This document shows positions 59,192 through 64,000 of a DNA stretch of 64,000 bases, piece after piece. Each line of letters starts with the position of its first letter. Position 1 is the stretch's first letter. The position numbers were made by a program, and so were the translations under genes. The notes beneath the pieces were generated by a model, which saw only the letters and a list, made by a program, of their open reading frames with translations, was not told the origin of the DNA and did no database searches. This DNA comes from Escherichia phage ECO07P3, in sequence record OP172786; one strand, given 5' to 3'.

Positions 59192-60156
59192 TGTATTCTT
59201 TAGAGGAATTTAATAATCAAGCAATAAACGCAGATTTTCAACGTAATAATATGTTTAGCTGCGTTTTTGCGACAACTCCATCAACTAAAAGCTCTTCGTT
59301 GATAAGTTCAATTAGCAACTTTTCTTATAATAACTTGGGTCTAAATTCAGATTGGTTAGGATTAACCCAAGGCGATATTAATCAGGGAATTACAACGTTA
59401 ATTACTGCTGGAACACAAAAACTGACAAGAAAATCAGGAGTCAGTAAATATCTAATTGGTGCAATGAGTCAACGTACAGTTCAAAGTTTATTAGGCTCAT
59501 TTACAGTTGGTACATATTTAATTGACTTCTTTAACATGGCATATAACTCATCTGGATTGATGATATACTCTGTAAAAATGCCAGAGAATAGATTATCTTA
59601 TGAAACTGACTGGAACTATAATTCTCCTAATATTCGCATAACCGGGAGAGAATTAGACCCTTTGGTTATTTCATTTAGAATGGATTCAGAGTCGTGTAAT
59701 TATCGTGCAATGCAAGACTGGGTCAATGCTGTTCAAGACCCAGTAACTGGATTACGTGCTCTGCCGCAAGATGTCGAGGCGGATATCCAAGTTAATCTTC
59801 ATTCTCGCAATGGATTGCCTCATACTGCGGTGATGTTCACCGGATGCATTCCAGTGTCAGTGAGCGCTCCTGAGTTATCATATGATGGAGATAACCAAAT
59901 AACTACATTTGATGTTACTTTTGCGTATAGAGTCATGCAGGCTGGAGCAGTTGATAGACAAGCTGCGCTTGAATGGCTTGAATCTGCTGCTATAAATGGT
60001 ATTCAAAGCTCTTCTGGAAATAATGGAGGTGTTACTGAACTATCTAGTTCGCTTTCACGACTTAGTAGATTAGGTGGAACTGCAGGAAGCATTTCAAACA
60101 TTAATACTATGACAGGGATTGTCAATTCGCAGAGTAAAATATTAGGAGCAATATAA
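59191..60156 (+). CDS. 54: gp54 baseplate-tail tube initiator
   Basis: 321 aa; gene order. Confidence 0.9.
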   Translation: MYSLEEFNNQAINADFQRNNMFSCVFATTPSTKSSSLISSISNFSYNNLGLNSDWLGLTQGDINQGITTLITAGTQKLTRKSGVSKYLIGAMSQRTVQSLLGSFTVGTYLIDFFNMAYNSSGLMIYSVKMPENRLSYETDWNYNSPNIRITGRELDPLVISFRMDSESCNYRAMQDWVNAVQDPVTGLRALPQDVEADIQVNLHSRNGLPHTAVMFTGCIPVSVSAPELSYDGDNQITTFDVTFAYRVMQAGAVDRQAALEWLESAAINGIQSSSGNNGGVTELSSSLSRLSRLGGTAGSISNINTMTGIVNSQSKILGAI

Positions 60157-60160
60157 CAAT

Positions 60161-60190
60161 GGGGACCTTTCGGTCCCCATGTTTTTATTT
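60161..60190. terminator. Rho-independent terminator between gene 54 and the alt region
   Basis: ggggaccTTTCggtcccc followed by atgtttttattt. Confidence 0.6.
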
Positions 60191-60475
60191 ACGGAATGAA
60201 ATGAAAGCAGCAACTGAAGCAACTAAACTGTCTTCAATATAAACTTCAATTTTTACCGGAGCTTCTGACTCAAATTTACCTGTTACCACACCCTGAAAAA
60301 TACTTTCAGTCTGTTCTGGCTTTGAAAAATTTTCAGAAGGAAAAATTCCGAACTTTTTATCTGTTCCAAAAATTTTGATAAATTCATCGTAAACTGCTTC
60401 ATTAAAAGCGTTATCAGCAGGAATAACGCCTTCAACTACAAGTTCTTGACCTAAAAAGCGCAAAGAAGATTTCAT
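60185..60475 (-). CDS. Hypothetical protein (96 aa) downstream of alt
   Basis: ORF only; no recognisable domain. Confidence 0.45.
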   Translation of the reverse strand: MKSSLRFLGQELVVEGVIPADNAFNEAVYDEFIKIFGTDKKFGIFPSENFSKPEQTESIFQGVVTGKFESEAPVKIEVYIEDSLVASVAAFISFRK

Positions 60476-60535
60476 TTTGTGTTCCTCATGTTATGTCAGT
60501 AAGACTACTATAACACAACATGAGGAACTTGTAAA

Positions 60536-62593
60536 CTACATTTTGAACTTTTTAGACATTCCGTTAATGTTAACCAAAGAAGCTAAGATTTGAGAAACTT
60601 CGTTTTCCTCTTCTTTTGATTCTTCTACAAGGAATTGATTAAATCCAGCCATTGGACGAACTTCGCCAGTTTCCATTAGATGGTCGCCATCATATACCGA
60701 TTCCTCTAATTGTTCAGAAGGAGGAACGATTGTACCTTCTATTAGATACTTGTTATAAGCAGTTTCTTTCATAAAGTACGTACTTACTTTATTAATCTTC
60801 AGTAAAATTCCGCGCGGTAGAATAACTTCAGCTTCTGATGGAAATCCTGATAAATGACCTGGAACGATAACTTTGATTCGCTCAGCCCCTTTAATTACCA
60901 TACCCACGCTAGTTTCAGCATCTTCATTCGCGTAAGCAGAGTGACTGCCCATATGCATTAAATCTTCAGCATCAACTGAACCTTCTCCTTCACCAGAAAA
61001 TACTGCACCAGAATCATCTAGGGCCATATAGTTTTTACCATACTCACCGAAGATATTTGGTTTAAGCGATGTTGATACGAAGTTCTTGAAATAGAACATT
61101 TTATTTTCAATATTATGGCGTAAAGTTTTAAAAGTAACTTCTTGTCCACGATAAAGCGTAGTTCCTGGAGGAAGAACTGATCCTTTGGCGAATGCAGAAT
61201 CCAGCGTCTCGATGTGTTTAATAGCTCGTTCCATGTATTCTTCACGGGTAGAATCTGGTTTACCCAAGAGGAACGAGTTCATTTCAACATATGAATCTGC
61301 ACAATAATCTTCAATTACATCAGACTCAGCCTGAGTTAATCCTTTTGGGGGTACTTCGGTACTTGCATATTCATACGCTTGAGAAGCAGACTCATTAATC
61401 AATTTATAAATGCCATTCATGACAAATTGAACAATAGCTATCTTTTCGTCTGGCGTGGCTTTAGAACCTTTAACTAAATCATTGACGATTTTCTTAATAA
61501 CATCAAAGCTATTAGAAATATTAATGTCAGCAAGATCGCTTAAAATTTTATCAGTTTTATAATCAAAAAATTCTTTATTCTTTAAATATTCCTGAGAACC
61601 TTGATATGTTATATCGCTCTGTAACTTGATAGATGGATCACGTAAACGCGCATGAGCCAATGCAATATGATTTCGGAAGTTTTCTAGTTCATAATCGCTA
61701 GATTTAAAACGAGAAGCACTTCTCATACCACCGATAGCTCCTTTGCTGAAGTTTGAACCAATCTGAATAACGCCAGAGTTCATTGGTCCTTCTGCTTTAT
61801 ATACCGGAACTTTAGATTCAAACTCTTGATATTTCTTGGCAGCGAAGCTATCACCCTGAAGCGAAGCATCTACAGTAGAATATTGAGCTTGCGCTGCTAA
61901 TCGACGACTAATTTTAGTTTTCTGAATAACAGCTTGATCCGTGCGCTTATCATTTTCTAAAGCAATAGAAGCAGCAACAGCAACAGCTTTAGGAACAGCA
62001 TTACCTGTTTTAACATCTACATAAACATCACCAACCTTTGATTCAACTTTTGTGAATAACTCAGTTGAAATAGGAGGTACACCTGGAATGTCTTCTAAAT
62101 TGGCATTTTTACGGTAAACCATAATATATGCATACTTTTTATCATAATCCCAGATTTCCTTTAAAAGAACATATCGACCTGCTCCTTTAGTACGTACTAA
62201 ACGGTCAGCAATAACTTGCATTTGACGAGCTGCGCCATTTGTTTTACTTTTTAGTACGCGGAATAGGCATGCGTCAATTTTATACTGTTTCATTGTTTGA
62301 AGAGCAGTATCAAAAACCGCATTAATAACACCAATTGGATTTCCACCCAAGTTTTTAAGTTTAACTAATGATAATTTCTCATTAACACCTATCATTACGA
62401 TATGCATCATTTTATCGCCTGGCTTAACGTTTTTATTTGTATCACCGCCAGAGGTGTATGTACAAAATCTAAATCCAGGAAGCACACTTTCTTCACCGGC
62501 TTGAATAGCGAAAATTTGAGGTATTTTATGCTTAGGATTTAAGTTAACAACCGGCGCCGAAGCGCCGTCAAATAATTCTGTAATAAGTTCCAT
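60536..62593 (-). CDS. alt: Alt ADP-ribosyltransferase (packaged, injected)
   Basis: 685 aa; C-terminal R-S-E type catalytic region (TLYRGQ ... FVSTSL ... EAEVILPRG); position after gene 54. Confidence 0.85.
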   Translation of the reverse strand: MELITELFDGASAPVVNLNPKHKIPQIFAIQAGEESVLPGFRFCTYTSGGDTNKNVKPGDKMMHIVMIGVNEKLSLVKLKNLGGNPIGVINAVFDTALQTMKQYKIDACLFRVLKSKTNGAARQMQVIADRLVRTKGAGRYVLLKEIWDYDKKYAYIMVYRKNANLEDIPGVPPISTELFTKVESKVGDVYVDVKTGNAVPKAVAVAASIALENDKRTDQAVIQKTKISRRLAAQAQYSTVDASLQGDSFAAKKYQEFESKVPVYKAEGPMNSGVIQIGSNFSKGAIGGMRSASRFKSSDYELENFRNHIALAHARLRDPSIKLQSDITYQGSQEYLKNKEFFDYKTDKILSDLADINISNSFDVIKKIVNDLVKGSKATPDEKIAIVQFVMNGIYKLINESASQAYEYASTEVPPKGLTQAESDVIEDYCADSYVEMNSFLLGKPDSTREEYMERAIKHIETLDSAFAKGSVLPPGTTLYRGQEVTFKTLRHNIENKMFYFKNFVSTSLKPNIFGEYGKNYMALDDSGAVFSGEGEGSVDAEDLMHMGSHSAYANEDAETSVGMVIKGAERIKVIVPGHLSGFPSEAEVILPRGILLKINKVSTYFMKETAYNKYLIEGTIVPPSEQLEESVYDGDHLMETGEVRPMAGFNQFLVEESKEEENEVSQILASLVNINGMSKKFKM

Positions 62594-62596
62594 GAT

Positions 62597-64000
62597 TTAT
62601 CCTTGAACGAACTTGTAAGGCATGTTTGTAATATCTATGCAAGACGCAATAATTCCAAGAGATGATTCTACTTTTTGTTTAACATTTGATGAAACAAATG
62701 ATGCAAAGTCAACTCTGTCTTCTATTTCAATATCACCTGTCATTGCAACTACTTCACCAGTTTCCATTAGACGGTCACCGTCATAAATGACTGATTCGGT
62801 GAGTTCTTCCGTAGTCATAACTTCAGCTTGAATGAGTTTTGTATTATTAGATGTTGTTCCGTCGTTATTAGAAGCATCAGTTATTTTATTAACTTTGACC
62901 ATCAATCCGCGTGGTAGAATAACTTCAGCTTCTGTTGCTATTCCGAGACTTCCTGGATATACAACATTAACTTTATGAGCTCCATCAATTGCCCATCCTA
63001 TTTGAACTTTAACGTATTCAGGATTTTCTTTATACGCTCTTATTTCGTTTGGATTAATAGTTATTCCTTCTTCATTTTTATCAACTGTTAATTCATTACG
63101 AGCTTCTGGTTCTAAAAGACCAATACCAGCATGTGTAATTCCAAAACGCCCAAAAATGATAGGAGTTAAAGAAGTAGATACAAAATTTCTGAAATAGAAC
63201 ACTTTATTTTTAACTAGTGCTTCGTATATAGGAGCAGTCATACTTTGTGCACGATAAACTGTAATGCCTTCCGGTATACGGTCACCATTTTCAAAAGCTG
63301 AATCTAAGTTATTTATAGCAGATTCAATTTCTTTTTCACTCATTACATCATATCGTTCTGGATTGTAGCGTCCTAAAAGAAGATTATTGATGTCAGTATA
63401 TCCTGAACCACAATACTCTCTAATGCCGCGCTTTTGTGATGGAGTATATTTAGAACCATCACGGGCAATAGTAATATCAATCATTGGACCTGCACCAATT
63501 CCAGAAAAGCTATAAATCATTCGTTTGAGGAATTTAGTTTTTGCTGCGTTCCAGGAATTTTTAGTTATTTCTTCCCAGACTTCATCTGGCTGTCCTTTAC
63601 GGGTTTTATTATGTTTATCAAGCCAAGTATCTTTATATTCTTCAAAGAATTTATTAATAGCTGCTGCATACTTCTCTAAACATTTTATTGAAGTAGTCGG
63701 TTCATTTTTGATCGCGTTAAAAATTACATCTTTAATTTTTTCAGAAACTTCATTAACCTCACTTTTTGAAAAGAATTTATAATCATAGTGAAGTTCATCT
63801 GCAGTTCCTTCAGCAATAATTTTTGCTGCCTTAGTTTTAGAAGCCAATGAATTAATTCCAAGTTTCATTTCTTCTGCTTCGGGAATTAAAGGAGCGGTAG
63901 CAGGTTTATTGAAATTAGCTGCGGTAGATTCATACTTCTGGAATAATTCGCTTTCAAATCTAGAAGATTCTAATGATTGACTTTGTGCAATTGCTCTACG
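62597..64000 (-). CDS. Second Alt-like ADP-ribosyltransferase (paralog); N-terminus lies beyond the window end
   Basis: ORF-track ORF starts at 63868 but the frame stays open to the window edge. I translated 63869-64000 in frame (RRAIAQSQSLESSRFESELFQKYESTAANFNK...), which resembles Alt residues RRLAAQAQYSTVDASLQGDSFAAKKYQEFESK. C-terminal catalytic region VYRAQ ... FVSTSL ... EAEVILPRG is paralogous to Alt. Confidence 0.75.
   Translation of the reverse strand, partial: RRAIAQSQSLESSRFESELFQKYESTAANFNKPATAPLIPEAEEMKLGINSLASKTKAAKIIAEGTADELHYDYKFFSKSEVNEVSEKIKDVIFNAIKNEPTTSIKCLEKYAAAINKFFEEYKDTWLDKHNKTRKGQPDEVWEEITKNSWNAAKTKFLKRMIYSFSGIGAGPMIDITIARDGSKYTPSQKRGIREYCGSGYTDINNLLLGRYNPERYDVMSEKEIESAINNLDSAFENGDRIPEGITVYRAQSMTAPIYEALVKNKVFYFRNFVSTSLTPIIFGRFGITHAGIGLLEPEARNELTVDKNEEGITINPNEIRAYKENPEYVKVQIGWAIDGAHKVNVVYPGSLGIATEAEVILPRGLMVKVNKITDASNNDGTTSNNTKLIQAEVMTTEELTESVIYDGDRLMETGEVVAMTGDIEIEDRVDFASFVSSNVKQKVESSLGIIASCIDITNMPYKFVQG

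Follow-up and report, generated by a model that had tools for sequence, protein, structure and literature searches.

The best described relative of the genes analysed here is Alt of bacteriophage T4 (NP_049811), an NAD-arginine ADP-ribosyltransferase that is made late and incorporated in about 40 copies into the prohead core, where the prohead protease gp21 trims it, and that is injected together with the DNA. Mass spectrometry has placed the two cuts after ITE-6 and LTE-619, the second of which costs the protein its 63 C-terminal residues (PMC5694885). The targets of T4 Alt comprise Arg265 of one RNA polymerase alpha subunit, Arg84 of MazF and at least 27 host proteins. Beside alt, the T4 GenBank record lists alt.-1 and alt.-2 (NP_049810, NP_049809) and describes them as the trace of an old duplication, which covers the first part of alt and contains a stop codon. 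The duplication of alt was also noted by Nolan et al. 2006, who report that Aeromonas phage 44RR has a duplicate alt of full length (PMC1524935), and a 2026 paper on phage 6phi13 reported “two paralogous Alt-like proteins” of 43% identity, for which functional divergence and an expanded range were proposed (PMC13600099). Here we compare these systems with the alt locus in a 64,000-nucleotide stretch of Escherichia phage ECO07P3 (sequence record OP172786; the whole stretch is referred to as the window), where two adjacent genes, here named A and B, lie on the minus strand between positions 60,536 and 64,000. We consider it likely that this is a T2-type alt locus whose two paralogous, arginine-specific mono-ADP-ribosyltransferases are made late, packaged, trimmed and injected, probably with different targets.

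Two Alt-family paralogs at the alt locus

Bases 60100-64000 of the window match Escherichia phage ECO07P1 (OP172784.1, Tequatrovirus) at 100%, and 541 other T4-like phage records match the same bases at lower identity. The plus strand carries gp27, gp28, gp29, gp48 and gp54, and the minus strand a gene of 96 codons, two genes of about 2.1 kilobases (kb), a gene of 62 codons and DNA ligase, so ordered that the synteny gp29-gp48-gp54 / alt.-3 / B / A / alt.1 / ligase is the same as in T4. A and B are thus found where an Alt-family gene is expected, between gene 54 / alt.-3 and alt.1 / gene 30, on the strand opposite to the baseplate genes. This is a T2-type Tequatrovirus alt locus, of an ordinary kind for T4-like phages. 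All minus-strand genes of this region are named “hypothetical protein” in the ECO07P1 record, and in RefSeq records of near relatives both large genes are called “Alt-like RNA polymerase ADP-ribosyltransferase (x2)”. The pairs of T2, EC121, IME340 and others, as well as those of 6phi13 and SHFML-11, consist of the same two genes in the same order, with 97-99% protein identity, and differ in nothing substantive. The pair is real but already known, from the T4 record, from Nolan et al., from many annotations and from the 6phi13 paper.

Gene B (60536..62593, minus strand) is a complete open reading frame (ORF) of 685 codons for an Alt-family ADP-ribosyltransferase. Gene A enters the window at its edge and is represented there by residues 231-697 and the stop codon (62597..64000, minus strand); the ORF list lets it begin at an internal ATG (62597-63868), and the frame continues open to base 64000. 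The two genes are co-oriented and separated by a spacer of three nucleotides (TAA-ATC-ATG), so that B starts 3 nucleotides past the stop codon of A. A reading of the window made earlier from its letters and a program-made ORF list, the sequence-only reading, had described two adjacent minus-strand genes, corresponding to the ORFs 60536-62593 and 62597-63868, and had taken the truncated frame upstream of the latter to be Alt-like; both descriptions hold. In the ECO07P1 genome the frame runs for 230 more codons to an ATG, which lies 690 nucleotides beyond the window edge, and completes an Alt protein of 697 residues, of which the first 238 match T4 Alt at 237 of 238 positions. An early stop just beyond the window, with no Alt-like N-terminus, is therefore not what the genome contains. 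The N-terminus of A, being outside the window, is invisible from the window sequence.

By position A corresponds to T4 alt, lying like it between alt.1 and the genes proximal to gene 54, in the form of a T2-type allele with 70% overall identity to T4 Alt. B corresponds to the alt.-1/alt.-2 remnant of T4, whose position it shares; the gene is dead in T4 and intact here, is annotated as alt.-2 in phage RB9, and its product shows 41% identity to T4 Alt along its full length. Compared with one another by BLASTP, A and B are 41% identical from end to end (E=2e-158). Both belong to PHROG 802, “Alt-like RNA polymerase ADP-ribosyltransferase”, with E=3e-272 for A (residues 1-696) and E=2e-255 for B (residues 1-685), and both exceed the cut-off of 23.4 bits for Pfam family PF03496, A with 129.2 and B with 72.2 bits; precomputed matches to PF26846 and PF03496 are present on a cluster representative of 98% identity, PF26846 being found also on the A::B hybrids described below. 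A search of NCBIfam gave no match. With B as the query, a sequence search of the PDB likewise gave no match, and with A it gave weak matches to CDTa and iota Ia only, spanning the Tyr-Arg and Glu-x-Glu segments.

The two proteins share a five-part layout, which consists of a 6-residue propeptide, a conserved N-terminal domain, a variable helical middle, a C3/VIP2-like catalytic domain and a C-terminal propeptide of about 55-65 residues. In B, the propeptide MELITE (62576..62593, minus strand) is followed by the conserved N-terminal domain (residues 7-238; 61880..62575, minus strand), for which the precomputed Pfam name is PF26846 Tevenvirinae_ADPRT. The central variable region (residues 239-412; 61358..61879, minus strand) is all-helical in the predicted model, and the ADP-ribosyltransferase domain (residues 413-631; 60701..61357, minus strand) ends at a cleavage-type motif, Leu-Glu-Glu(631), beyond which lies the predicted C-terminal propeptide (residues 632-685; 60539..60700, minus strand). 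In A, the corresponding segments on the minus strand are the central variable region of the T2-type allele (residues 239-412; 63455..63976), the ADP-ribosyltransferase domain (residues 413-632; 62795..63454), which ends at Leu-Thr-Glu(632), and the predicted C-terminal propeptide (residues 633-697; 62600..62794), which is 94% identical to the segment of T4 Alt that is cut off at LTE-619. The AlphaFold model of B has a predicted local distance difference test (pLDDT) score of 76.5, and its only long stretches of low confidence, residues 1-10 and 629-685, correspond to the two propeptides, both of which score below 50.

The catalytic residues of the family are present in both proteins, as the sequence-only reading had proposed on the strength of an Arg-Ser-Glu signature. 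In B these are Arg482 within Leu-Tyr-Arg-Gly-Gln (61148..61150), Ser507-Thr508-Ser509 (61067..61075) and Glu587-Ala-Glu589 (60827..60835), the last being the Glu-x-Glu motif of arginine-specific transferases; in A they are Arg480 (63251-63253), Ser505-Thr-Ser507 (63170-63178) and Glu587-Ala-Glu589 (62924-62932), all on the minus strand and all with codons checked. When the catalytic domains were aligned with those of T4 Alt, ModA and ModB, the Arg column, one Ser column and both Glu columns were invariant, B Arg482 falling in the column of ModA R72 and the Glu-x-Glu motif on ModA E163-Q-E165; the Arg and Glu columns thereby coincide with the published ModA residues R72 and E165. Among 59 family representatives with a pairwise identity of at most 50%, R482, S507, S509, E587 and E589 of B are each at least 90% conserved. 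On sequence grounds, A and B are full-length paralogous Alt-family ADP-ribosyltransferases in which the catalytic residues are kept.

T4 ModA and ModB are members of the same transferase clade, and their Arg and Glu-x-Glu columns align with those of A and B, but they are early, unpackaged proteins of about 200 residues, lack both the N-terminal domain and the propeptides, and share 15-16% identity with A and B in the catalytic domain. An assignment of A and B to this small, single-domain type could be ruled out by their lengths of 697 and 685 residues, the N-terminal domain, the propeptides and the late promoter. The bacterial toxin ADP-ribosyltransferases C3, iota Ia, CDTa, VIP2 and Vis are 14-23% identical, and their delivery modules are unlike that of Alt.

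The N-terminal domain, which has an existing Pfam entry in PF26846 Tevenvirinae_ADPRT, is 99.6% identical to that of T4 Alt in A, where it lies almost wholly outside the window, and 68% identical in B. An exhaustive search of 1.8 billion representatives found it restricted to the Alt family, in 69 clusters, and in these it always forms the N-terminus, nearly all of the proteins having 600-710 residues; 57 of the 59 long members carry the PF03496 transferase domain and no other Pfam family. The idea that the domain is a delivery module for varied cargo was rejected on these grounds, given the 69 clusters and the same transferase in 57 of 59 long members. We found no convincing structural relative for the domain; a GNAT acetyltransferase fold was considered, and no specific structural match of that kind was obtained.

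Cleavage motifs, late promoter and proposed delivery

The features by which T4 Alt is processed recur at aligned positions in both paralogs, as ITE-6 and LTE-632 in A and as ITE-6 and LEE-631 in B. The N-terminal propeptide of B ends at the prohead-protease motif Ile-Thr-Glu(6), in the same sequence that is found at the T4 Alt cut site, and its predicted C-terminal propeptide aligns with the segment that is removed from T4 Alt. Both cleavage glutamates of B, Glu6 and Glu631, are at least 90% conserved over the same 59 diverse representatives. Length, domain order, the Arg, Ser-Thr-Ser and Glu-x-Glu elements and the two gp21 cleavage motifs are thus all shared between T4 Alt, A and B. With regard to expression, a terminator hairpin is followed by the late-promoter consensus TATAAATA, which is found 24 nucleotides 5' of the start codon of A.

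By analogy with T4 Alt, we infer that A and B are co-transcribed late, that their products are packaged, cleaved, injected and enzymatically active, and that the targets of the two diverge. Both genes would be transcribed late from the TATAAATA promoter 5' of A, and their products would be incorporated in the prohead core, where gp21 may trim them after Ile-Thr-Glu(6) and after Leu-x-Glu(631/632). The trimmed proteins would remain in the head until they are injected, along with the DNA, into the next host, and there each would move ADP-ribose from nicotinamide adenine dinucleotide (NAD) onto host-protein arginines ahead of all phage gene expression. The target sets of A and B would probably be different, and perhaps overlapping.

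It is feasible that B is active but not packaged, and acts like ModA and ModB in the producing cell, for instance late in infection. T4-type phages do use the non-packaged transferases ModA and ModB as well, and our literature search found no virion proteomics for B. We nevertheless regard this explanation as quite improbable, as B has the whole Alt architecture and not the 200-residue Mod type, retains the MELITE propeptide, the conserved N-terminal domain and the C-terminal Leu-x-Glu, and lies 3 nucleotides 3' of A behind the late promoter. Moreover, the locus of phages ECML-134 and PST has no Alt-family gene other than a hybrid of the A N-terminal domain and the B effector part.

A second copy of the T4 late-promoter consensus TATAAATA lies inside gene A (63310..63317, minus strand), about 720 nucleotides 5' of the B start. 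It is annotated as a promoter in phage SA20RB, by pattern only; since it shares bases with the codons for Ala-Ile-Asn-Asn, the match may be a coincidence that stems from coding.

Several points weigh against the likely reading of A and B as two packaged, injected transferases. Our alignment puts the Ser motif at ModA S96-A-S98, while a review gives ModA S109, and the Ser column across the Alt and Mod proteins is uncertain at 15% identity, although the Ser-Thr-Ser motif within the Alt family is not in doubt. The late promoter and the start of A lie outside the window and were taken from the parent genome. In the literature we found neither proteomic nor biochemical work on B or a T2-type A, and searches for experiments on alt.-2 or on a second Alt turned up nothing. 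Finally, T4 lacks B and grows well, and its alt gene is likewise non-essential, so that any role of B would have to be conditional.

Divergence of the pair and states of the locus

The identity between A and B differs strongly between modules in the MAFFT alignment, amounting to 68% in the N-terminal domain, 20% in the central region, 35% in the catalytic domain and 42% in the C-terminal segment; in its central region B is even further from T4 Alt, at 10%. The sequence-only reading had held that both the N-terminal and the central regions were diverged. This stands for the central regions, but the N-terminal regions are the best conserved part. In the three large modules the synonymous divergence (dS) between A and B comes to about 1.1-1.26, and the short C-terminal propeptide has a value of 0.82; the duplication must therefore be old. 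The nonsynonymous divergence (dN), in comparison, is 0.29 in the N-terminal domain against about 1.0 in the centre, and about 0.7-1.0 across the central and catalytic regions. Recent gene conversion was considered as the cause of the similarity between the N-terminal domains and was rejected, because dS between A and B is about 1.26 in this domain as well. Selection, then, and not recent gene conversion maintains the N-terminal domain, and the middle has been free to diverge.

Selection on each gene was measured between orthologs. A scan of IMG/VR returned 5 loci only, and GenBank phage records were therefore used in the selection analysis. Over nine orthologous pairs from isolates and metagenomes, dN/dS of B was 0.03-0.08 at dS 0.09-0.23; for A, with one locus carrying an A of different length left out, it was 0.015-0.11 over the same range of dS. 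A and B are both under strong purifying selection and are working genes.

A differs from T4 Alt in a modular fashion too. Its N-terminal domain is nearly identical (237/238), its central region is 31%, its catalytic domain 67% and its C-terminal segment 94% identical to that of T4 Alt. Between A and T4 alt, dS is 0.11 in the N-domain flank and 0.22 in the C-terminal flank, and exceeds 1 in the middle 1.1 kb. As dS is low in the flanks and above 1 between them, A is a mosaic whose effector part has been exchanged by recombination, a recombined allele that differs from the T4 one. At a threshold of at least 90% identity, the T2-type allele of the central region is found in 317 phage records; the T4-type allele is found in 174.

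These comparisons bear on the question of what the two enzymes would modify. Since the middle and catalytic parts of A and B have diverged to saturation, different target sets are probable. One could also speculate that both share RNA polymerase alpha Arg265 as their main target, and that the pair serves to raise the injected dose or to modify both alpha subunits; T4 needs Alt and then ModA to modify both, and the arginine-specific Glu-x-Glu site is kept in both paralogs. The identities of 20% in the centre and 35% in the catalytic domain, at dN of about 0.7-1.0, argue otherwise, as does the existence of two A alleles that are about 30% identical in the centre, a pattern more typical of diversifying targets, and we therefore hold a common main target to be unlikely.

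The fate of B in T4 can be read from the DNA. T4 alt.-1/alt.-2, directly 3' of alt, is near-identical at the DNA level to the first approximately 345 nucleotides and the last approximately 20 nucleotides of B. T4 lost the gene by a 1-nucleotide deletion in a run of A at about codon 54 and by a 1699-nucleotide deletion between the two copies of a 9-nucleotide direct repeat, CTAAAAAGT (window positions 62254 and 60555). The first copy (B nucleotides 340-348; 62246..62254, minus strand) marks the left edge of the T4 deletion, and the second (B nucleotides 2039-2047; 60547..60555, minus strand) the right edge. An 81-nucleotide probe over the T4 deletion junction matched in full in 91 phage records and by half in about 390, and the latter number agrees with the 396 records in which B is encoded at an identity of at least 95%. 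With intact B in about 390 records, T2 included, the tandem pair is the common state and that of T4 is derived. The proposal of tandem Alt paralogs with kept catalytic residues is borne out. The pair is no expansion particular to this lineage: it is what the majority of Tequatrovirus phages have, and it is T4 that lost B.

In Shigella phage sb1, B is split into two ORFs of 534 and 1248 nucleotides, and A is of the T4-type allele. The split may reflect either independent decay or sequencing errors. The record also shows that A allele type and presence of B assort independently.

Single-crossover hybrids were also observed, in which the A N-terminal domain is joined to the remainder of B at four different points, with the switch located at B residues 43-54, 102-110, 174-192 or 218-224. 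Such a hybrid is the sole Alt-family gene at the locus in a 65-kb contig, in ECML-134 and in Yersinia phage PST. As the crossovers lie where A and B are most alike, we considered whether the hybrids could be assembly artefacts and rejected this, as the longest exact match between A and B is at most 30 nucleotides, which makes such an artefact unlikely, and as the cultured phages ECML-134 and PST share the hybrid. The tandem pair can thus collapse by recombination inside the shared N-terminal domain, and at least three states of the locus exist, namely the tandem pair, A with a B remnant, and a single A::B hybrid.

These losses raise the possibility that B is a redundant or decaying duplicate that is heading for loss and has no function of its own. 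The 91 records of T4-type phages with nothing but a frameshifted remnant carrying the 1.7-kb deletion, all from fully viable phages, would fit this, as would the split B of sb1 and the collapse of the pair to one hybrid gene in a few isolates. We give the explanation very little credence, however, because B is an intact ORF of 685 codons in about 390 records, has a dN/dS of 0.03-0.08 at dS up to 0.23, and keeps all catalytic and cleavage residues, and because the hybrids retain the effector part of B and lose that of A.

Neighbouring genes and the wider setting

Directly 3' of B lies the gene of 96 codons (60185-60475, minus strand), which is alt.-3 and belongs to Pfam DUF5498. In T4, C-terminal extensions of Alt.-3 lead to phage escape from the CmdTAC defence (PMC11618068). 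Upstream of alt.-3 we observed a strong match to a promoter of the sigma-70 or T4 early type (60507-60535, minus strand; TTTACA-17-TATAGT with TG, 10/12), which begins directly after the B stop codon, and a two-way terminator hairpin (60159-60180) is located between alt.-3 and gene 54.

The earlier reading of A and B as diverged paralogs with a wider target range is already in print (PMC13600099). Of practical value is that T4, the model phage and the only one whose Alt has been studied, is atypical at the alt locus, since its copy of B is deleted and its A is a different allele. What has been learned of the T4 Alt targets may consequently not hold for T2-type phages, a group with many members in use in therapy cocktails, and B offers itself as an easy candidate for a second injected host-modifying enzyme. 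More tentatively, it is possible that most Tequatroviruses, T2 included, inject two transferases with targets unlike those of T4 Alt, and that one or both of these could disable a component of a host defence or toxin-antitoxin system, in the way that T4 Alt disables MazF; in that case the swaps of cassettes in A and the A::B hybrids might be the traces of an arms race.

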